DNA of 64,000 nucleotides. It comes from a virus. Positions 6,950-39,743 of the stretch are shown in pieces. The stretch spans positions 1 through 64,000 of IMG/VR virus record IMGVR_UViG_3300033997_000310; one strand, written 5' to 3'. Both the position numbers and the translations under genes were made by a program. Each line of letters opens with the position of its first letter. The first letter of the stretch is position 1. The notes beneath the pieces are model-generated. The model made no database searches and was not told where the DNA came from. It worked only from the letters and a program-made list of their open reading frames with translations.

Positions 6950-7520
6950 AAATTTCTGGGGAAAATCGGCGGTTTTTGACTGGCCAGATTTTGGTGATTC
7001 TCGCGGCGAAATCGGGGCAAAAAGTGGGATTTTTCAGCCAATTGCAGGAAGTCATACTAATAAGAAATGTTGCGTGAATTCAATGCGTTAATTGTATTTT
7101 TATGCCGCGACATACTCTGTCGTCACAGCCACAGAGGTCTGTGGGTTTTTCACAGAGAATCACAGTGACCGATCTGGGGCCGAAAAGTGCGTTGTTTCTT
7201 GCCGTTTCCGAAAACGGAGACGCATAGAAACTATGAGGCGTACTAATAAGAAAGTATGAGGCATTTCAGGAGTTTGCGGAGATTTTGGATTTTGAACGGC
7301 GACTAAGAGACAAGACAGAGAGATAGATAATAGATTCCTCACTACGTTCGGAATCCCTCCCAAGAAGATTCTATTCCGCTTCGCTCCATAGAATCTCCCA
7401 AGGGTTCCGTCCGCGATTTTCGGTTTCGAGTGTCGGCCGGGCCGAGAGCGCAGCGCGTCGTTCAGCATCAGCGCAAACCAATGCTGGCATCACGGTCAGG
7501 AAGCAGGTATCTGGGAATGA
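6950..7520. other. AT-rich non-coding region with direct repeats and hairpins (candidate pac/cos site or origin)
   Basis: TACTAATAAGAAA x2 (7055, 7241); four or more inverted repeats; lies between divergent arms, upstream of the terminase genes. Confidence 0.4.
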
Positions 7521-10377: not shown

Positions 10378-11784
10378 ATGCCATTGGAAACCGTACATCC
10401 AGACTACGCCGCGCATTTCCGCCAATGGCAGCGCATCAGGGACTGCATAGCCGGCGAAGACGCCGTGAAGGCGGCCAAGGAGCGATATCTGCCGCGGCCA
10501 TCCGGCATGGACGATCCGATGTTCGACGCCTATGTCGAGCGGGCCTGCTTCTTCGGGGCCACGCGCCGCACGGTGCAGGGCCTGCACGGTGCCATGTTCC
10601 GCAAGGCGCCAGAGGCAACGCTGCCGGCCGGCGAGCGCTACGCCGCCCTGGTCGACAACATCGACCTGCAGGGCACGCCGCTGGACGTGTTCGCGTCGAC
10701 GCTGTGCTGGGAACTGCTGGCCATGGGCCGGGTCGGAATTCTCACCGACATGACGGCGGCAGGTGATCCCTACCTGATCATGTACATCGCGGAGAACATC
10801 ACCAACTGGCGGGAGGCCGACGTCGGCAACGTCCCAGTGCCGGACCAGTTCATCCTCATGGAGACCTACACGATCCCGGCGCTCGACGGCTTCGGCAGCG
10901 AGATCAAGAAGCGATATCGCGTCCTGGAGCTTGACGAAAACGGCCTGTATCGCCAGCGCATCTTTCAGCGGCCCGACCAGGGCGGTGAGTGGGTCGTGAC
11001 GGTGGTTGAGCCGAAAGTTCGCGGCAATCGCCTGAACACGATTCCGTTCAGCGTCCTTTCCCCGACGCAATTGCAGCTTGCCATCGAGACCAGCCCCATC
11101 AAGGAGTTGGTCGACATGAACGTCAGCCACTATCGCACGTCGGCTGACTTGGAACACGGCGCGCACTGGACGGCAACTCCGACGCCGTGGGTTTCTGGTC
11201 CATTCTCGGACGTACCGCCAGCCCTGAGTGTTGGATCAATGGCGGCATTGGTGCTGCCTGAAGGCTCCCAGGTCGGCATGCTAACCCTGAAGGGAGACGA
11301 CCTGGGCGCGCTGTTCAAGCAGCTCGAACAGAAGCAGGCCAAGATGGCGCAGCTCGGCGCCCGCCTGCTGGAAGACCAGAAACGCGCCGCCGAGACCGCG
11401 GAATCGAAGCGCCTGCAATACAGTGGCGAAAACTCCGTGCTGGCCACCATCGCCAACACCGCGAGCCGGGCCCTGACCCGCAACATCGGCTGGGCGGTGG
11501 AATGGCTGGGCGGCAACCCGGCGGACGTCGCTATCCAGGTCAATACCGACTTCTTCGACGCAACCATCGACCCGACGCTGCTGTCTTCCATGCTCGCGGC
11601 GGTGCAGGGCGGCTACATGAGCACCGACACCTTCATTTGGAACCTGATCAAGGGCGAACTGACCCCGCCGGGCAGGACGGTGGAGGAGGAGAAGGAGTTG
11701 ATCGAGATGCAGGGGCCGTCGTTTACACCGAACGTCGATCCCCCGCCGGCCGACGCCGACGCTGAAACGCAGCAGGTGGCGTGA
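10378..11784 (+). CDS. Portal protein (DUF4055 type)
   Basis: HPDY...YLPRP...YVERA, HYRTSADLEH, AETAES; follows TerL. Confidence 0.9.
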   Translation: MPLETVHPDYAAHFRQWQRIRDCIAGEDAVKAAKERYLPRPSGMDDPMFDAYVERACFFGATRRTVQGLHGAMFRKAPEATLPAGERYAALVDNIDLQGTPLDVFASTLCWELLAMGRVGILTDMTAAGDPYLIMYIAENITNWREADVGNVPVPDQFILMETYTIPALDGFGSEIKKRYRVLELDENGLYRQRIFQRPDQGGEWVVTVVEPKVRGNRLNTIPFSVLSPTQLQLAIETSPIKELVDMNVSHYRTSADLEHGAHWTATPTPWVSGPFSDVPPALSVGSMAALVLPEGSQVGMLTLKGDDLGALFKQLEQKQAKMAQLGARLLEDQKRAAETAESKRLQYSGENSVLATIANTASRALTRNIGWAVEWLGGNPADVAIQVNTDFFDATIDPTLLSSMLAAVQGGYMSTDTFIWNLIKGELTPPGRTVEEEKELIEMQGPSFTPNVDPPPADADAETQQVA

Positions 11785-27972: not shown

Positions 27973-28680
27973 ATGGCGCATGAACGCAACAAGCCGCTTG
28001 GGCGCAAAGCCTATGGATCAATCGCCCACCTTCCCGGCAGTCGCATGGGGCCGGCAGACCATCACTGTCACGCGGGACAAGAGGCGATCTGCTTGATGAA
28101 GGCCCGCGACAAGCATGATCGGATTATCGTCACCGAAAAGCTGGACGGCAGCAATGTTGCTGTCGCCAAGGTCAATGGGGAAATCATGGCCCTTGGCCGC
28201 GCTGGCTTCCTGGCATCGTCATCGCCGTATGAGCAGCATCATTTTTTCGCGGCATGGGTTGATCGCAACCGCGACATTTTTTCTTCCCTGCTGAAGAATG
28301 GCGAGCGCGTCAACGGCGAATGGCTGGCCCTTGCACACGGCACCAGATACCAGCTTCCGCACGAGCCCTTTGTAGCTTTCGACATGATGGTCGGGGCTGT
28401 GCGGCTGCCCTGGGATGAAACCGCCAATCGGTGCCGTGAGCATGACATCGTGCTGCCCAGAGTCCTGAGCGATGGGCCGCCCTTCAACATGGATCAAATG
28501 CTGTCCGTGCTCGACGACAGCCCGCATGGCCCTCTCGACCCTGTTGAGGGCGCCGTATGGCGCGTCGAGCGCAAGGGTGCATTCGACTTCATGGCGAAGT
28601 GGGTGCGGCCTGACAAGCAAGACGGCAAGTACCTCACCGACATCACTGGCCACGAGCCGATCTGGCATTGGAGGCCGTAA
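27973..28680 (+). CDS. ATP-dependent RNA ligase (nucleotidyltransferase domain)
   Basis: EKLDGSN (I), GEW (III), AFD (IIIa), EGAVWR (IV), AKWVR (V); no OB domain. Confidence 0.85.
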   Translation: MAHERNKPLGRKAYGSIAHLPGSRMGPADHHCHAGQEAICLMKARDKHDRIIVTEKLDGSNVAVAKVNGEIMALGRAGFLASSSPYEQHHFFAAWVDRNRDIFSSLLKNGERVNGEWLALAHGTRYQLPHEPFVAFDMMVGAVRLPWDETANRCREHDIVLPRVLSDGPPFNMDQMLSVLDDSPHGPLDPVEGAVWRVERKGAFDFMAKWVRPDKQDGKYLTDITGHEPIWHWRP

Positions 28681-29426
28681 TGTCCTTCACCGTCCACTGC
28701 GGCGACTGCCGAACCATCATGCCACAGCATGGCCCGTTCGACATGATCGTCGCCGACCCGCCCTATGGCGACACCAGCCTGGAATGGGACCGTCACGTTG
28801 ATGGCTGGGAGGCGGTCGCCGCCTCTTGCCTCAAGCCAACTGGTTCCATGTGGGTGTTTGGCTCCATGCGGTTCTTCATGGCGACAGCGGACAGGTTCCG
28901 CGCCGCCGGGTTCCGCATGGCGCAGGACATCGTGTGGGAGAAGCAGAACGGCAGTGGATTTGCCGCCGACCGGTTCAAGCGCGTGCATGAACATGCGGTG
29001 CAATTCTATCTTGCCAATGCAGCATGGGGTGATGTGTTCAACGAGGTGCAGAGGCAGAAATACAGCGGACCTGACAAGCATGTTCGCCGTCGGCTTGCTC
29101 ACAGGGGTGACCATGTGGGCGCCATTGGACAGACTGGATATATTGATGACGGCACCAGGATTGTTCGCTCAGTGGTTCACGCGAGCAACCTTCAGGGGAA
29201 GGCTATCCACCCCACCGAGAAGCCATCTCCGCTGCTGGAAATCCTGATTCGGACCTCATGCCCGCCCGGCGGGCTGGTGGGCGATTTCTTCGCTGGAAGT
29301 GGTGCCGCTGGCGAAGCGTGCGCCATCTCTGGCCGCAACTACATTGGAACCGAAATCGATCCAGAGATGGCTGAGAAAGCGCGTGCGAGGCTTTCGCAGA
29401 ACCTGTTCTCAAGGGCTGCTGAATAG
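28680..29426 (+). CDS. N6-A/N4-C DNA methyltransferase, beta class
   Basis: DPPY...HPTEKP...DFFAGSG. Confidence 0.92.
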   Translation: MSFTVHCGDCRTIMPQHGPFDMIVADPPYGDTSLEWDRHVDGWEAVAASCLKPTGSMWVFGSMRFFMATADRFRAAGFRMAQDIVWEKQNGSGFAADRFKRVHEHAVQFYLANAAWGDVFNEVQRQKYSGPDKHVRRRLAHRGDHVGAIGQTGYIDDGTRIVRSVVHASNLQGKAIHPTEKPSPLLEILIRTSCPPGGLVGDFFAGSGAAGEACAISGRNYIGTEIDPEMAEKARARLSQNLFSRAAE

Positions 29427-32510: not shown

Positions 32511-33140
32511 ATGCAAATGCAGTTTAAGGCAGATCATGCCGATGCACTCGATTGGCTTCCGACAATCCAATCCCAATCAGCGAAGATTGTTGTTTTTGAT
32601 CCACCATATGCGGTTGGAACTCCTGTTCGCGGAAAAGAGGATGGGGCCGCTGGCAGTGTGTTTGGTCCACTATCATTTATGTCCAAGGCTCTAACGCAGT
32701 GCAGTCGTATCGTTATGCCTGGAGGTGTCGTTGTAATATTTGCCGATTGGAGAAGAATGCCGGATTTAGCATATGTTGCTACGACTGTTGGCTTGCGTGC
32801 ATCAACATGCATAGCATGGACAAGAAAGCGGCCTGGAACGGGCGGAATGTTTAGATCGGCATGGGACCCAATCCTGATCGCTTCCCGCGGTGTTGCTGAC
32901 GCTATTGATCGTGCGGCGATACGGAATGTAATTGAGGCAGACTACCCAACAAAACGCATTCATCCATATGAGAAGCCAGCAGAAGTCTTCCGGCACATTT
33001 TTCCCAGGATTTCTGTGCCAGGAGACCTTGTGGTTGATCCGTTTGCTGGATCTGGAGTGTCGGCAAGGGTGGCCAGAGAATTGGGGCTAAATTGGATCGG
33101 CTGTGATGTTGATCCACAGTTTGCGCAAGAGGCATCATGA
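32511..33140 (+). CDS. Second N6-A/N4-C DNA methyltransferase (lower GC)
   Basis: DPPY...HPYEKP...DPFAGSG; visibly AT-richer than flanks. Confidence 0.9.
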   Translation: MQMQFKADHADALDWLPTIQSQSAKIVVFDPPYAVGTPVRGKEDGAAGSVFGPLSFMSKALTQCSRIVMPGGVVVIFADWRRMPDLAYVATTVGLRASTCIAWTRKRPGTGGMFRSAWDPILIASRGVADAIDRAAIRNVIEADYPTKRIHPYEKPAEVFRHIFPRISVPGDLVVDPFAGSGVSARVARELGLNWIGCDVDPQFAQEAS

Positions 33141-34412
33141 ACCAGAACGTCCAGGCCACGACGCTGCCCAATGGCGTCACTGTCATCACCGACGAAATGC
33201 CGGGCAGCGGGATCGTGGCCATCAGTTGCGGCGTCGACGTCGGCAGCCGCGACGAATGCGACCGGCTGGCCGGGGCGAGCCACCTGCTGGAACACATGGT
33301 GTTCAAAGGCACGGCGCGCTATGCCGGCTCCGAGATCGCAGACATCATCGAGCGCGATGGCGGCTCGCTGAATGCCTGCACTGGCGAGGAAGGCACCGAA
33401 TACTCCGCCGAGGTGCTGGCGGAACCGGTCCCGGTCGAGAAAGCCATTGCCGTGCTCTCGGACATGATCTTCGCCCCGCGCCTGGATAAGGACGACCTGG
33501 AGATGGAGCGGGAAGTCGTCGTGCGCGAAATCCTGGAGGCGCAGGACGATGCGGATCGTCGCATGCACGATCTCGTAAAGCGATCCATGTTCGACGGCCA
33601 GTCCATTGGCCGCAGCGTCGCCGGCAGCGTCGAGACTGTGCGCGGCATCACCCAGGGCGACCTTCAGCGATTTCACAGCGCCCACTATCGCCCGCACCAC
33701 GTCATCTACTCCCTGGCCGGCGGGATAGACCATGCGACCGCTGTGGCACTGGTGGAGCGCGAGACGCGAAACGCGACCGGCCAGCACCAGATCAAGCGCC
33801 CGCCGGACCGGTTCAATCCGCAGTTCGTCACGGAGCCGGAAGGCCGGGATCAGATCAGCGTCAACGTGTCCTGGCCAGCACCGCACGCCACGCACCCCGA
33901 CTATCAGACGGTATTCACGATCAGTAACTATCTGGCATCGGGCTTCTCCGCGCCGCTGTGGAGGGCGCTGCGTGAAGATCGCAGCCTGTGCTACCACTTC
34001 TCCGCCCGGTATCGGCCGCACAGCGACGCGGGGTTCTTCAGATTCCATGCGCTGACGAGCGACGACTCCCTGGACGAACTGCTGCAGGTGGCTTCCGGCG
34101 AGATCATGGCCATGCTGGAGCGCGTTGATCCAGAGCGCCTGCGTCGCCAGTGCCAAGATGGAGATGTTCGGTCATCTCCAGTCCGCCTATGGCCGGGCCT
34201 ACTACACCGGGTCGCGCTATGCGGAAACCGGTCGCATCGTCACCTGCGCCGACATCATCGCTGACACGGAGGCAGTGACCCAGGACGCCATCCTGCGCGT
34301 GGCAGCCGAGATGTTTACGCAGCGCCCGGCCATGGCAGTGCAGGGGCCCTTCCGGCATGATCAGTATGCCACCGTCGAGGCGGCGTTTGGCGGGTGGAGG
34401 AAAGCGGCGTGA
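33137..34412 (+). CDS. M16 (pitrilysin-family) zinc peptidase with frameshift near 34150
   Basis: TTLPNG, VGSRDE, HLLEHMVFKGT, NACT. The homologous C-terminus (AKMEMF...EAVTQDAILRVAAEMF) is in another frame ending 34412. Confidence 0.85.
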
Positions 34413-34729
34413 CCAGGGTGGAATTCCCCATTCTCAAGCCAGTTGCCGGTGGATCCAAGAGCGTTCCATGGGCGTGGATCGAGCAATATCGGTCTGTCGC
34501 CATGCGCAACCATTATCAGACGCTCGAACGGCTGGCGGAAAGAGGTGGCCTAAGTCCGGGCGAAATATGGTTGCTCATCGCTGGTGTCCGTCCGTCCAGA
34601 ATGCCAAGAGATGTTTCTGCGGTACGTTTTCAGAACGTGATTGACCGGACCATAGAACGCTGGCGTCAAGATGCCAGCAGCGGTGAGCAAGGAGGCGACG
34701 ATGGCCAGCACGAACGAGCAAATTCTTGA
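34409..34729 (+). CDS. Hypothetical phage protein
   Basis: PW...A.RNH.QTLERLAERGGLS.GE motif; GTGA-coupled. Confidence 0.65.
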   Translation: MTRVEFPILKPVAGGSKSVPWAWIEQYRSVAMRNHYQTLERLAERGGLSPGEIWLLIAGVRPSRMPRDVSAVRFQNVIDRTIERWRQDASSGEQGGDDGQHERANS

Positions 34730-35660
34730 AGAGCAGGTAAGGCACTCCATCGGCCTCCAGCGACTGGCCGGCGGCACCGTCAAGGACATCCTGGCCCTGC
34801 TGGCAAAGGTAGACACCGACATCGTTGCCAAGATGCGCGAGTACGAGATCGAGGGCCGCAGCGAGGCCGCCCGACGGCGGCTGCAACGCATGCTGGAGGC
34901 CGTGCGCGAGATCATTCAGGAAGGCCACTCCGAGCTTTACCCGCGCCTGCGTGACGACATGTTCGAGCTGGCCAAGTACGAGGCTGAGTACCAGCAGAAC
35001 CTCTTGAGCAGCACCGTGCCGGTGGCCATTGACGTCATCAAGCCGTCTGTCGAGCAACTGACGGCCATCGTCACGCAGCGCCCGATGCAGGGCCTGCTGC
35101 TGAAGGATTGGGCCGCCGGCCTGGAATCCGACAAGCTGAAGCGCGTGGAGCAGGCCATCAACATCGGGTTTGCGGAAGGCGAGACGATTGACGACATGGT
35201 CCGGCGCGTCCGCGGCACTCGGGCGAAGCAATTTCGGGATGGCGTGCTGGATATCAGCCGGCGGAATGCGGAAGCCGTGGTTAGGACGGCTGTGGCCCAC
35301 ACGGCGCAGTCGGCGCGGGATGACTTGTTCGCGGCGAATGCAGACCTCATCAAGGCGGTGGCCTGGAACAGCACCATTGACAACAGAACCTGCGTCGTCG
35401 CGGGAACGATGGTGATGACGCCAGATGGTGAAACCCCCATCGAAAGCCTCACGCCCGGTGACAAAGTGATCGGAGGATCTGGAGTTATTCGCTCCGTCCT
35501 GCATACCGACACAAAGAAGGTTTCCGAACTGATGAGGGTCAAGCTATCGAACGGCGTCACGATACTGTGCACACCTGATCATATGTTCAGAACCGAATCA
35601 GGAAATTGGCTTCCGGCACATATGATGATGTCTGGTACGAAGTTGTCAGCCAAGCTATAA
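34701..35660 (+). CDS. Minor head protein (Mu gpF/SPP1 gp7) N-extein fused to split intein N-half
   Basis: AGGAGG RBS; AEAVVRTAVAH...WNSTIDNRT, then CVVAGTMV (block A, Cys1 at 35391) and CTPDH (block B), then TAA. Confidence 0.92.
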   Translation: MASTNEQILEEQVRHSIGLQRLAGGTVKDILALLAKVDTDIVAKMREYEIEGRSEAARRRLQRMLEAVREIIQEGHSELYPRLRDDMFELAKYEAEYQQNLLSSTVPVAIDVIKPSVEQLTAIVTQRPMQGLLLKDWAAGLESDKLKRVEQAINIGFAEGETIDDMVRRVRGTRAKQFRDGVLDISRRNAEAVVRTAVAHTAQSARDDLFAANADLIKAVAWNSTIDNRTCVVAGTMVMTPDGETPIESLTPGDKVIGGSGVIRSVLHTDTKKVSELMRVKLSNGVTILCTPDHMFRTESGNWLPAHMMMSGTKLSAKL

Positions 35661-35729
35661 TGGCCGAACCCCCACGGCGCTGGTAACGCCATGGGGGTTC
35701 ATACCAACCACGCTTTGTAGGAGCGAGGA

Positions 35730-36836
35730 ATGGCGGGACAAATAGTATCAATCTGCGCCACATGCGCAAATGAATTTGTCCGGAGTGGCGGCAAATCCGG
35801 GAAATTCTGCTCTGTTGATTGTTACAGGAAATCCCAAAGGTCTGGGGATTATAAGCGCGGCCCAGGTCCATTGAGGACGAGAAGGCCATGCGCGACCTGC
35901 GGTGAAATTACCGTAAGAAACCCTGCCACCGACAGGCACGGAAACAAGTGTGACAAGGTTTTCTGCTCTCGCGCCTGCTATGATCAGCATAGGTCCAATG
36001 CGATCAAGGCCAGAAAAGTAAACTGCGCTCATTGTGGTGTCGCATTCTCCCCAGGATCTGGCAATGGATTTAAGTATTGCTCTCATGAATGCAGGGTTGA
36101 GCACAAGCGTCCAAAGACTGTCATCTGCATAAATTGCGGGTGTGAATTTTGCGCAATAAAGCGCATGAAGAGACCAAATAACAGAATTGAGTTTATTTCT
36201 GTATCAGGCGCAAAAACCTGCTCGAAAGAATGTAATTTGGCGTGGATCAGCAACAATGAAGAGAGAAAGAAAAAGATTGGCGATGCGTTCCGTGGGCCAA
36301 ATCATCCGAACTGGCAGGGCGGGAAATCGTCACTTAACAACGTATCTAAAAGAGGTGCTAGTTGGGAGAAGATAAGGAAAAAGGCACTGAAGAGAGACAG
36401 GCACAAATGCGTTGACTGTGGCATCAGCAACGACCAGTGCATTGAAAAGTTTGGTCGCGGCCTTGATGTAGATCATGTCGTTCCATTCCACAACTTTTCA
36501 AAGTTCAAGGAAGCAAATAGATTATCCAATCTGCAATGCAGATGCAGTTCATGTCACAAGCGCGCCGAAGCCAAGCGAAAAAACGTACAAATGGTGCTAC
36601 CATTCCAGGACAGTGCGAAACGCAGACACAAGGGCGGGCATCGTATGGGCGAAAAGCATCCTAAAGCGAAACTTACATCTGCCCAGGTCATGCAAATCAG
36701 GAAAGAGCACGCTGATGGAGTTTCAGCGCAAGAGCTTTCGCAGAGTTACGGCATCAAAAAGTCAAATGTGCACGCTATAATTAAGGGGAAGACCTGGAAA
36801 TGCCTACCAATATCACCGTCGAACACGCCGAATTGA
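35730..36836 (+). CDS. Free-standing HNH homing endonuclease with four Zn-finger repeats and C-terminal HTH
   Basis: 4x CxxC...(F/Y/T)CSxxC, NHPNWQGG, CVDCG..DVDHVVP..N..NL..C.SCH, GEKHPKAKLT..HTH; low GC. Confidence 0.9.
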   Translation: MAGQIVSICATCANEFVRSGGKSGKFCSVDCYRKSQRSGDYKRGPGPLRTRRPCATCGEITVRNPATDRHGNKCDKVFCSRACYDQHRSNAIKARKVNCAHCGVAFSPGSGNGFKYCSHECRVEHKRPKTVICINCGCEFCAIKRMKRPNNRIEFISVSGAKTCSKECNLAWISNNEERKKKIGDAFRGPNHPNWQGGKSSLNNVSKRGASWEKIRKKALKRDRHKCVDCGISNDQCIEKFGRGLDVDHVVPFHNFSKFKEANRLSNLQCRCSSCHKRAEAKRKNVQMVLPFQDSAKRRHKGGHRMGEKHPKAKLTSAQVMQIRKEHADGVSAQELSQSYGIKKSNVHAIIKGKTWKCLPISPSNTPN

Positions 36837-37336
36837 TAACGCTCGATGAGCCTGTTGATGTTTTCGACATCCAGGTTGATGTTGATGAAAGCTTTGTCTG
36901 TGGCGGCATTGTTCTAAGCAACTCGTCCATTTGCAGGACTCGTGACAGCCTGCAATACACACCTGTGGAGCATAAGCCAATAGGTCACAGCGTTCCCTGG
37001 CTCCAAGGCCCGGGTCGGTCTCACTGGAATTGCCGATCCAGCAGCGTCCCGATCACCAAGTCATGGCGCGAACTCGGCATAGACGAAGACGAATTGCCGA
37101 TCACCACGCGCGCCTCAATGGACGGCCAAGTGCCAGCCGACATGACCTACAGCGACTGGCTCAAAAAGCAGCCGCGCTCCGTGGTTGACGAAATCCTGGG
37201 TGAGAAAAAGGCCAAGCTGTTCCTCGACGGCGGCGTCACCCTGGATCGGTTCGAGGATCGCGCCGGGAATGAACTCTCGCTCAAGGAATTGCGCGCCCGC
37301 GAGGCTGAAGCCTTCCGCAAAGTCGGCCTGTCCTGA
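36800..37336 (+). CDS. Split intein C-half fused to minor head protein C-extein
   Basis: 41-aa IntC ending VFDIQV..ESFVCGGIVLSN, +1 Ser, then SICR...HWNCRS...RASMDGQVP...TYSDWL (gpF C-terminus). Confidence 0.92.
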   Translation: MPTNITVEHAELITLDEPVDVFDIQVDVDESFVCGGIVLSNSSICRTRDSLQYTPVEHKPIGHSVPWLQGPGRSHWNCRSSSVPITKSWRELGIDEDELPITTRASMDGQVPADMTYSDWLKKQPRSVVDEILGEKKAKLFLDGGVTLDRFEDRAGNELSLKELRAREAEAFRKVGLS

Positions 37337-37409
37337 AAGCGCGCGTTTTTGGACAAGACAGAGCAATGGATTTCTTCCATGGTTGGTTCATCAACCACGG
37401 GAGATTTCC

Positions 37410-37857: not shown

Positions 37858-38385
37858 TCAGGCGGCCAAATCAAGGTTAACGTATTCGCTCCACTGAGCC
37901 ACGGCGGCTTGCCGATAGGCTTCAGCGGCATCATTGATGTCGGAAAAACAGCCAAGCTCTTTGACGCGCTTACCAATTGTAATTTGTGCGCGCCATTTAC
38001 CACTCTTTTTGTGCCAGCTAACGCCTTTGATCCCTGATTTATTTCTACTGCTTAACGTCTTATTTACCTCATTCTCTGCCCTGGACGCTGGACGAAGATT
38101 TGACCAAGCGTTGTTGCTGGGGTTACGGTCCTTATGATCAATTTCATATGGGCACGATCCAGTCATCCAGACGAAGGCCAATCTATGGGCCGAATACATC
38201 GCATCACCAATACCGATAAGCCGATAGCCGTCCGGCCTGTTATACCCGGCCACGTCGCCAGCGCTGACACGTCGACCATTGCCAGCCAGCCACCGGAACA
38301 TTCCTGTATCTGGATCGTAATGCATCAGTTTCCGCAAGTGCTCTTGCGTAGGAAGCTGGGCAGGCGTATTTCTGCGCTTAGTCAT
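37858..38385 (-). CDS. HNH-AP2 homing endonuclease
   Basis: YDPDTG, AHRLAF, IDHKDRNPSNNAWSNLR, NKSGIKGV; own promoter TTGATG-17-CACAAT (38481-38453). Confidence 0.92.
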   Translation of the reverse strand: MTKRRNTPAQLPTQEHLRKLMHYDPDTGMFRWLAGNGRRVSAGDVAGYNRPDGYRLIGIGDAMYSAHRLAFVWMTGSCPYEIDHKDRNPSNNAWSNLRPASRAENEVNKTLSSRNKSGIKGVSWHKKSGKWRAQITIGKRVKELGCFSDINDAAEAYRQAAVAQWSEYVNLDLAA

Positions 38386-38507: not shown

Positions 38508-39401
38508 CTACAGCCGATAAGCCCTATCGCTGAACTTGTCCTTGCCTCCGATGCTCACCACCTGCGCACGGCACCGGCTGGCAGCCAGGAACGCTGACTC
38601 GGCCTCAGCAGCTTCAGCGGTTGTCATATCTCGGAACCACGCCTTGGGCCTTCCCGCCTCACCAGCAGACCAGCGATATCCGCGAGCCTTCAGCGCATCC
38701 TTCATCTCAAACGGGGAATGCACCGACCACACCCGATAGGAAGGCCGCCGGGCTGCGTCCAGCAGCGCCTGCATCACCGGACGGCCCGAGACGGGTAGCG
38801 TCTGCGCCAACGCATGCACGACCGCCTGGCAGTCGTTCCCGGCCCGGTGCGCATCGAAGAAAAAACCCAACCGATAGGCGATGAAGGCCAGCTTCTGCGA
38901 CTCGATGCCTTCCGCTTTCCAATCCACATCGCTGACGCTGCATGACCAGTGCTTGGCTGCGAAGCATGGAAAGCGCCGCTCTACCTTAGGCCTGTCGAAA
39001 TCGGCGTTGTGGGCGATCACCAGATCGGCGGCGGCGCACAGCGATTCCACCAAGCAGTCATCGAACCCCAGACCGCGCACCATATCGTCCGTGATGCCGG
39101 TGATGGAGACGATTTCCGGCGACAGTGGCACGCCTGGATCCTCGAACATTGATAGCGGCGTGCCCACCTCAAAGATGCGACCCGTCGTCGGACAGAACGA
39201 AAAGGGCAGGGCGCCGAACTCGATGATGGAGGCGTTTTCCTCCAGGCCGGTGGTCTCGGTGTCGATCACGAGGCCGGTCTTGAACGGTTCGCCGTCGCCG
39301 CGCTCGTGATAGCGGTCAACAGGCCGGAACCGGCGGACGACGCGGAAGTCGCCGGTCTGTTCCAGAAGGTCGATGCACTGCGGGATCGTGATGCTGGTCA
39401 T
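38508..39401 (-). CDS. DEDDh 3'-5' exonuclease (DnaQ-like)
   Basis: IDTETTG, AHNADFD, HRAGNDC. Confidence 0.92.
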   Translation of the reverse strand: MTSITIPQCIDLLEQTGDFRVVRRFRPVDRYHERGDGEPFKTGLVIDTETTGLEENASIIEFGALPFSFCPTTGRIFEVGTPLSMFEDPGVPLSPEIVSITGITDDMVRGLGFDDCLVESLCAAADLVIAHNADFDRPKVERRFPCFAAKHWSCSVSDVDWKAEGIESQKLAFIAYRLGFFFDAHRAGNDCQAVVHALAQTLPVSGRPVMQALLDAARRPSYRVWSVHSPFEMKDALKARGYRWSAGEAGRPKAWFRDMTTAEAAEAESAFLAASRCRAQVVSIGGKDKFSDRAYRL

Positions 39402-39743
39402 GAGTCTTGATATCCCTGCCACTTGCCCTGTTCCCAGGCGCGAAATTGCGATTCCGAATAGCCGCTCGGAATTTTTGGCGATTGCCCGTCGCCAAGCTCA
39501 TGGTTCGTCGCTTGGCGATACCCATTCCAGAACGCCTCGTGTTCAGGGCTTCCGTGTTCGTAGTCCATCGCTGGTGTCCTTGATTTGATCCCATGCATCT
39601 TGCCACGACACCTCGCCGCGCCTGACCTCGCATGGTTGTTCGATATCGCCGCCGCTGAAACAGCCGGCCCCAGCATGAGAGGCAATATAGAGCGGGCAGT
39701 GGTGCATTTCAGCGTGTGGGCAGCCAATGGCCATGACTAATCC

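Follow-up and report, generated by a model that had tools for sequence, protein, structure and literature searches.

How can a phage make a complete head morphogenesis protein from a gene that lies in two pieces with a nuclease gene between them? The question is raised by the window analysed here, i.e. the first 64 kb of the IMG/VR virus record IMGVR_UViG_3300033997_000310 (114,801 bp), in which a gene of the MuF/SPP1-gp7 type is divided into an N-fragment and a C-fragment on either side of a gene coding for a predicted free-standing HNH homing endonuclease. A preliminary description, made from the nucleotide sequence alone, had proposed that the two fragments carry the halves of a natural split intein. 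As detailed below, the locus is most likely a "fractured gene", in which a split intein and a free-standing HNH gene occupy the only MuF gene of the phage and the protein is rejoined by trans-splicing. Its layout is that of fractured genes: the open reading frames (ORFs) are separate and have their own translation signals, the HNH gene lies between them, the exteins abut, and the charges of the intein halves are complementary.

That the joined exteins form a known head protein, as the preliminary description had stated, is evident from the match to phrog_241 (head morphogenesis). Residues 6–242 of the upstream frame (ORF1) align to profile positions 5–240 and residues 42–177 of the downstream frame (ORF3) to positions 239–365; since these ranges adjoin, the exteins abut without a gap, and the whole profile is covered only when both halves are taken together. 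Uninterrupted homologues were also found, and they read ...LDxRT-SSxCR... over the junction; residues C45, H75, C78 and R79 of the C-extein are invariant in the alignments. Joining the exteins of the window would give the cassette-free junction DNA ...GACAACAGAACC|TCGTCCATTTGC.... The profiles TIGR01641 and PF04233 match the N-extein over their first ~75 positions only, and as the split divides the domain near position 75, each MuF half alone remains below the Pfam and TIGR cut-offs. A PF04233 search of the whole genome gave no match and missed the split copy itself, and phrog_241 was therefore used for the genome-wide copy search, in which the split gene was the only MuF copy of the complete genome (114.8 kb). 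Direct terminal repeats are present in the record, and its completeness is rated at 100%.

The layout and coordinates of the ORFs given previously were each confirmed by ORF listing and in the raw sequence (Table 1). The probable start codon of the N-fragment is the ATG at 34701, preceded at a distance of 6 nt by AAGGAGG and also used in the database protein P0038; a longer frame for ORF1 opens at 34671. ORF3 is in a different frame from the HNH gene and is preceded by the Shine-Dalgarno (SD)-like motif AAGGGGAAG at 36783–36791; its ATG lies 37 nt before the HNH stop codon. An overlap of the HNH 3' end with the C-fragment start, of 4–52 nt, was likewise present in each of the seven other loci described below.

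The segments on the inner side of the two junctions resemble the halves of an intein. The N-terminal half (IntN) scored 33.8 bits against Pfam Hint_2 (cut-off 28.4) and 27.5 bits against the NCBIfam model TIGR01445, intein_Nterm (cut-off 24.5), and a profile search gave the gp41-1 intein (6QAZ/6RIZ; E = 7e-13) as its closest relative of known structure. It keeps all columns that are invariant over 25 homologues (alignment A3), among them the block A nucleophile Cys1 at 35391 and the Thr and His of the block B motif T-x-x-H, present as CTPDH. In the C-terminal half (IntC), residues E11, V21, D23, I24, F32 and N41 are invariant in an alignment of 11 sequences (A4), in all of which the terminal Asn is followed by Ser or Cys at position +1; the window has VLSN|S, the residues from +1 onward being SSICR. 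The blocks named for both halves in the preliminary description (Cys1, CVVAGTMV, TPDH, VFDIQV and the Ser-Asn end) are all present. The net charge of split IntC sequences ranges from −7 to −12 and that of IntN from 0 to +9 (+1 in the window), and the corresponding 40-residue stretch in six contiguous alleles has net charges of +1 to −8. Taken together, these features support the assignment to a class-1 intein that is predicted to be split at the usual endonuclease-insertion site.

Table 1. Features of the split MuF locus (positions in the window; GC3, GC content at third codon positions).
Feature	Position	Strand	Remarks
N-fragment gene	34701..35660	+	MuF N-extein (230 aa) + IntN (89 aa) + TAA (35658-35660)
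N-extein	34701..35390	+	ends ...WNSTIDNRT; phrog_241 E 1e-76; GC3 0.84
Whole cassette IntN-leader-HNH-IntC, 1,532 bp	35391..36922	+	GC drop at both splice junctions
IntN, 89 aa	35391..35657	+	Cys1 (35391), block A CVVAGTMV, GGSG, LSNG....CTPDH (block B); GC3 0.60
TATAAT hexamer, candidate -10 box	35656..35661	+	contains the IntN stop codon
GC-rich hairpin in HNH leader	35666..35700	+	no U-tract; z -3.7 to -4.0
Small hairpin, 3' arm with HNH Shine-Dalgarno sequence	35711..35725	+	AGGAG 35719-35723; minimum free energy structures
Free-standing HNH homing-endonuclease gene, 368 aa	35730..36836	+	PF01844, phrog_1271; GC3 0.51
C-fragment gene	36800..37336	+	IntC (41 aa) + MuF C-extein (137 aa) + TGA; ATG 36800
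IntC, 41 aa	36800..36922	+	block F VFDIQV, ends VLSN; net charge -9; GC3 0.51
C-extein	36923..37333	+	starts SSICRTRD..., contains H-W-N-C-R-S; phrog_241 E 9e-52; GC3 0.73

The split recurs at the same site in many other proteins. IntN was searched against 1.84 billion protein cluster representatives, giving 1,914 matches at E ≤ 1e-3, and among the best 150, which were examined, at least 43 are proteins of 300–340 aa composed of a MuF N-extein and an IntN that reaches the C-terminus. In the alignment of 25 such sequences, GGSG, LSNG....CT.DH and a Trp are conserved, the junction motif is T-L-D-x-R-T|C, in which strict invariance is limited to Asp, the −1 Thr and Cys1, and most of the N-fragments stop within a few residues of each other. 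C-fragments with IntC also occur among the database proteins (P0002, P0004, P0008, P0018 and P0029). Locus retrieval from IMG/VR and GTDB genomes, using a degenerate DNA pattern for G.S-x21-LSNG....CT.DH, yielded the full module of N-fragment, HNH gene and C-fragment in seven further distinct loci (L084, L085, L086, L089, L092, L094 and L106), where it interrupts diverged MuF genes. L092 is identical to L103, a prophage-like region of the cultured gammaproteobacterium Moraxella boevrei DSM 14165 (NZ_KB903772.1), and L106 belongs to a metagenome-assembled genome of the betaproteobacterium Nitrosomonas communis, where the cassette is again located in a prophage-like region. The HNH proteins of the seven loci are 36–45% identical to that of the window (E down to 1e-75), and the frame of the HNH gene relative to IntN and IntC varies from locus to locus. 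Because the frames differ, a fusion by read-through or frameshift is ruled out as the design of the module, and its recurrence in seven loci with varied HNH frames argues for a functional, mobile fractured gene. In the Moraxella copy, the N-fragment ORF comprises 200 aa, similarity to the window being confined to the final ~100 residues of its N-extein, and the C-fragment ORF 405 aa; its extein architecture differs or is damaged.

The same MuF site is also occupied by contiguous inteins, namely a mini-intein (P0098, locus L087) and inteins of ~400–460 aa (P0105, P0142, P0169 and P0075). The latter showed no similarity to the HNH protein of the window, and no sense-frame Pfam endonuclease domain was found in their ~300-aa central inserts. 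Other searches recovered uninterrupted genes or nothing: the single-protein locus search with the HNH protein gave no match in genome contigs and viral contigs, that with ORF1 alone returned one relative, which is uninterrupted, and the C-fragment alignment retrieved 80 loci, all uninterrupted. IntN was also compared with 50,697 deposited phage records, and in the 40 top-listed of the 87 matching records no match lay in a MuF or head-morphogenesis gene. Two candidates from the searches were rejected: in Pseudomonas Yuavirus phages with neighbouring head morphogenesis and GIY-YIG annotations, the GIY-YIG gene is located upstream of an intact MuF gene, and the IntN-like match in a Vibrio "coil containing protein" belongs to a single contiguous chain of 900 aa.

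An assembly or sequencing artefact concealing a truly continuous head gene has a negligible probability. No evidence in its favour was found, although the window derives from a metagenome assembly; a Logan contig produced by a second assembler from the probable source run is identical over positions 34600–37400, at a depth of ~88 and without variants, and stop codons occur at the same place in the seven independent loci. The Logan contig is a second assembly of possibly the same data and not an independent sample. Since the second assembly is identical at this depth, the stop codons of the window are not assembly noise, and the separation into several ORFs, as first described, is real. The sequencing runs listed as containing the stretch all come from one subsurface-metagenome study, with no RNA dataset among them.

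As for the gene between the halves, the presence of a free-standing Zn-finger HNH gene, noted in the preliminary description, was corroborated by matches of the 368-aa ORF to PF01844 (22.6 bits; cut-off 21.4) and phrog_1271 (E = 4e-25). The protein consists of four CxxC...CxxC Zn-ribbon repeats, the HNH core and a C-terminal helix-turn-helix (HTH)-like tail. Residues H249, N263/N267 and H276 and the Cys4 site C227/C230/C272/C275 are invariant in the eight HNH copies of the cassettes, as are three of the four Zn-ribbon repeats, the first repeat being absent from L094. Relatives of the HNH protein in deposited phages are encoded by free-standing HNH genes, a finding that bears on how the arrangement arose. 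Instead of a mini-intein having been invaded by an HNH gene, a formerly contiguous HNH-containing intein might have fallen apart through stop codons or frameshifts, which would be in keeping with the single reading frame shared by IntN and HNH in the window, with a TAA and a TAG between them, and with the existence of in-frame HNH inteins in phages (bioRxiv 10.1101/2025.01.02.630785). Such an origin is unlikely, however, given that the relative frames differ among the eight loci, that the HNH gene has a conserved leader (TATAAT, hairpins and SD sequence) and an ATG of its own, that its relatives are free-standing, and that the same site harbours a contiguous mini-intein allele (L087/P0098) as well as large contiguous alleles without HNH similarity.

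The leader just mentioned fills the 69-nt spacer between the N-fragment stop and the HNH ORF in the window, and the −10 box, hairpin and ribosome binding site attributed to it in the preliminary description are present at the positions given in Table 1. TATAAT occurs at or just after the N-fragment stop in six of seven loci with a spacer, L106 having TATAAA, and the TAA stop codon lies inside the hexamer in the window, L085, L086 and L089. The hexamer is rare, with three copies on the + strand of the 64-kb window and a single copy each in L086 and L089. Seven to ten bases past it, each locus has a hairpin of unrelated sequence (L085, L086, L089, L094 and L106 among them), followed by the motif Y-U-A-M-C-C-A, a small hairpin bearing the SD sequence, and AUGGC; counterparts of this small hairpin are GACU..GGAGUC in L085 and L094 and CUAUUAGGAGUAG in L086. 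The fold of the 90-nt leader of the window has a z-score of −3.7, and one of 200 shuffled sequences was as stable. A terminator scan made no call at 35666–35700, where a U-tract is lacking, and no Rfam match was obtained in the leader. TATAAT is a candidate promoter element, and the SD hairpin may exert translational control, by analogy with the leaders described by Dassa et al. (PMC2677866). For the C-fragment, a purine-rich SD-like motif was found 7–12 nt upstream of the start codon, inside the HNH coding sequence, in all eight loci.

Some further observations concern the hexamer. In L084 (positions 7388–7434), the HNH ORF starts 47 nt before the N-fragment stop and there is no spacer, TATAAT or hairpin; this locus is a cassette variant without the conserved leader. 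A second GCTATAAT is located at 36776–36781 of the window, 18 nt upstream of the C-fragment ATG and within the HNH codons A-I-I, so that the cassette holds two of the three TATAAT hexamers on the + strand of the 64-kb window. L094, the other copy with an HTH-like HNH tail, also has TATAAT at the equivalent place upstream of its C-fragment. The hexamer at 36776–36781 may be a separate promoter of the C-fragment or a chance product of the Ile-Ile codons. The C-terminal residue of the 43 split N-fragments is Leu in 19 and Lys in eight, as would be expected if the stop codon were part of (C/T)TA-TAA-T.

These signals lead to a more speculative idea, which we regard as tentative and rather doubtful, namely that the cassette is a widespread mobile unit with its own expression logic and that trans-splicing acts as a gate that times the assembly of the head. 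The stop codon that splits the intein would come from the −10 box of the nuclease gene, the C-fragment would owe its SD sequence, plus a second TATAAT in some copies, to the 3' end of that gene, and synthesis of the C-fragment, hence of mature MuF, would be tied to the promoter and timing of the cassette. If this were true, trans-splicing would not be a neutral repair of the damage done by a selfish element, and MuF could rank among the commonest natural hosts of split inteins.

The composition of the cassette differs from that of the gene around it. The GC content drops from ~63% to 45–52% between the two splice junctions, GC3 is lower in IntN, HNH and IntC than in the exteins (Table 1), and the composition of the cassette is that of foreign DNA. 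In 903 pairwise comparisons of N-fragments, identity averaged 25% for the exteins and 44% for the IntN sequences, with a weak correlation between the two (Spearman rho 0.21). A greater similarity of IntN than of the exteins fits a movement of the intein between diverged MuF genes, and stronger constraint on the intein would also contribute to the gap. Because the distribution of the cassette is sporadic and its composition foreign, we infer that it probably spreads by homing and, from its sequence, that the window copy would be active in both trans-splicing and HNH-dependent homing.

The fractured-gene model then implies the following course of events. A composite selfish element, consisting of a gp41-1-like class-1 intein split at its endonuclease-insertion site and a Zn-ribbon HNH gene between the halves, would have entered the single MuF/SPP1-gp7-type gene of the phage at its conserved D-x-R-T|S-x-x-C motif. 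Two precursors would be made separately, the HNH protein being expressed from its own leader with TATAAT, 5' hairpin and SD-sequestering hairpin, and the C-fragment being translated from its own SD sequence inside the 3' end of the HNH gene. The strongly acidic IntC (net −9) would capture the neutral-to-basic IntN, upon which the HINT fold could form, and Cys1, Ser+1 and the terminal Asn would bring about trans-splicing to a 367-aa MuF protein with the junction ...DNRT-SSICR..., releasing the intein halves. During co-infection, the HNH protein would cut cassette-free MuF alleles, and repair would copy the whole cassette into them.

Several observations weigh against the fractured-gene reading. 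The C-terminal intein model TIGR01443 (intein_Cterm) aligns in register to residues 20–42 of ORF3, but with 12.3 bits, below its cut-off of 15.6; at E ≤ 1 it matches ten of the 11 members of alignment A4, including the window copy. The profile searches suggested in the preliminary description are positive for IntN, which exceeds both of its cut-offs, and fall short for IntC. The penultimate residue of IntC is Ser in the window and His in all ten relatives, and block F reads DESF instead of DHSF. With respect to expression, a sigma-70 scan of the + strand detected no two-hexamer promoter and hence no −35 element for the TATAAT, and no consensus structure emerged when the aligned leaders were folded with RNAalifold. 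As neither a −35 element nor a U-tract terminator, Rfam family or RNAalifold consensus was found, promoter function and translational control are kept as candidate roles. Moreover, the MuF gene does not adjoin the portal gene, and its role in the head of this phage is assumed from family membership.

The substitutions in IntC raise the possibility that the intein is splicing-dead and serves as a high-affinity dimerisation module, the MuF halves forming a non-covalent heterodimer like Aeh1 NrdA. Replacement of the penultimate His by Ser, a two-base change from CAY (assumed to be ancestral), is unique to the window copy, whose IntC lacks the block F His and scores below the intein_Cterm threshold, and the strong charge complementarity would still drive association. 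However, Cys1, TxxH, the terminal Asn and Ser+1 are intact, all of which a dead intein would be expected to lose. A penultimate His in block G is common among inteins but not universal; it is likewise absent from the DnaE inteins of Npu and Ssp, which have Ser or Ala at this position and still splice fast. Because the DnaE inteins splice without it, the missing His calls for caution and lowers confidence modestly but is not a refutation, and a dead intein is improbable.

Decay of the gene as a whole is very unlikely. If the insertion of a nuclease gene had simply broken a dispensable MuF gene, the two ORFs would be remnants of a pseudogene, and the position of the gene, far from the portal and capsid genes, amid methyltransferase, peptidase and nuclease genes and with a second free HNH gene 520 bp downstream, would be compatible with this. 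Against it, both halves are of full length and stop-free, each has an SD sequence and a start codon, all family-invariant residues of exteins and intein are retained, the gene is the sole MuF copy in a complete genome, and the layout is kept in seven other loci and dozens of protein clusters. Trans-splicing of a fractured gene thus remains the preferred explanation.

As regards the genomic surroundings, the portal gene (DUF4055) is located at ~10.3–11.8 kb, with the DUF4055 match at 11095–11508, i.e. 23 kb from the MuF gene; in L084, L086 and L094, a DUF4055 portal gene directly precedes the split MuF gene. Between portal and MuF, the window contains two DNA methyltransferase paralogs (28668–29426 and, within a patch of low GC, 32511–33140); an RNA-ligase-like gene (27973–28680) and an RNase_T exonuclease gene (38508–39422, − strand) are also listed among the genes of the portal/MuF region. 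Immediately upstream of the MuF gene, a gene at 33137–34264 (+ strand) codes for an M16 (insulinase-type) peptidase with Peptidase_M16 and M16_C domains; it has no PHROG match and might be a putative head-maturation or processing protease. The second free-standing homing-endonuclease gene (37858–38385, − strand; HNH_3 and AP2 domains; phrog_99, E = 8e-63) lies downstream of the MuF C-fragment in a low-GC patch of its own.

If the fractured-gene reading holds, the range of naturally split inteins widens beyond replication and nucleotide enzymes to include a protein of virion assembly, and the one split site common to dozens of diverged protein clusters means that a family, not a one-off, is at hand. 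Its members would be gp41-1-like split inteins with Cys1 and Ser+1 (or Cys+1), and the IntN sequences, which are roughly 30–80% identical to each other (mean 44%), are candidates for orthogonal pairs in protein ligation; the window copy is a natural penultimate His-to-Ser variant that lends itself to comparison with the other members. Together, the eight loci with homologous HNH genes offer a clean set for testing the model of a free-standing endonuclease invading a mini-intein. There is also a consequence for annotation, which at present leaves the MuF halves and the HNH gene without names or calls them one by one.

The fractured genes that Dassa et al. (2009; PMC2677866) described from Global Ocean Sampling (GOS) metagenomes comprise gp41-1, NrdJ-1, IMPDH-1, NrdA-2, DnaE, ligase and terminase loci. 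Like the window, they are of phage origin and consist of an N-extein–IntN gene, a free-standing endonuclease gene and an IntC–C-extein gene, with the split at the endonuclease-insertion site; their IntN and IntC parts have 88–105 and 33–54 aa, respectively (PMC2677866). They were reported to have leader hairpins (15 of 16 loci), a late-promoter box and an endonuclease 3' end overlapping the downstream start (PMC2677866), and leader hairpin, a candidate promoter box and 3' overlap are seen in the window as well. The promoter box, however, is of the T4 type TATAAATA in the loci of Dassa et al. and TATAAT, with the IntN stop inside, in the window. Moreover, their endonucleases are GIY-YIG or Vsr-like, whereas the window has an HNH protein with Zn-ribbon repeats, a class which was predicted for fractured genes but not seen at the time (PMC2677866), and their hosts are enzymes of DNA metabolism or packaging, in contrast to the head-morphogenesis/minor capsid protein of the window. 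The gp41-1 intein has the same charge polarity, with an acidic IntC, as that of the window, opposite to DnaE (bioRxiv 10.1101/546465).

An HNH-type free-standing endonuclease gene between IntN and IntC has been reported for the PolB gene of phage MIJ3, on bioinformatic evidence only (PMC6892783); it differs from the window in its host, DNA polymerase B, and in having Ser as the first intein residue (PMC6892783). Contiguous inteins in MuF-type COG2369 proteins were described by Novikova et al. (2016; PMC4760082), and inteins with non-canonical endonucleases are present in minor-capsid proteins (IPR006528) of actinobacteriophages, antisense Vsr-like endonuclease genes having been suggested within them (bioRxiv 10.1101/2025.01.02.630785). 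The contiguous MuF inteins found here (P0098, P0105, P0142, P0169 and P0075) share the site D-x-R-T|C...HN|S/C and homologous splicing blocks with the window, but are single polypeptides (mini or ~400 aa) with a less acidic IntC equivalent and no HNH similarity. In Aeromonas phage Aeh1, the essential nrdA gene is interrupted by mobE, an HNH gene (cited in PMC2677866; assembly, PMC3045599), which, as is proposed for the HNH gene of the window, stands under the control of a leader hairpin and a promoter box; the Aeh1 halves are co-transcribed but, unlike those of the window, have no intein and assemble non-covalently (PMC3045599). The novelty claimed in the preliminary description is too strong, since a split intein with an HNH gene (PMC6892783) and inteins in MuF (PMC4760082) had both been published. 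Full-text searches of the literature found no paper in which a MuF protein carries a split intein. The case is real and recurrent, and in comparison with these systems it is a fresh example of the known fractured-gene layout rather than a new kind of element; what is new is the class of the host protein, which belongs to head assembly, and the well-populated family to which the locus belongs.

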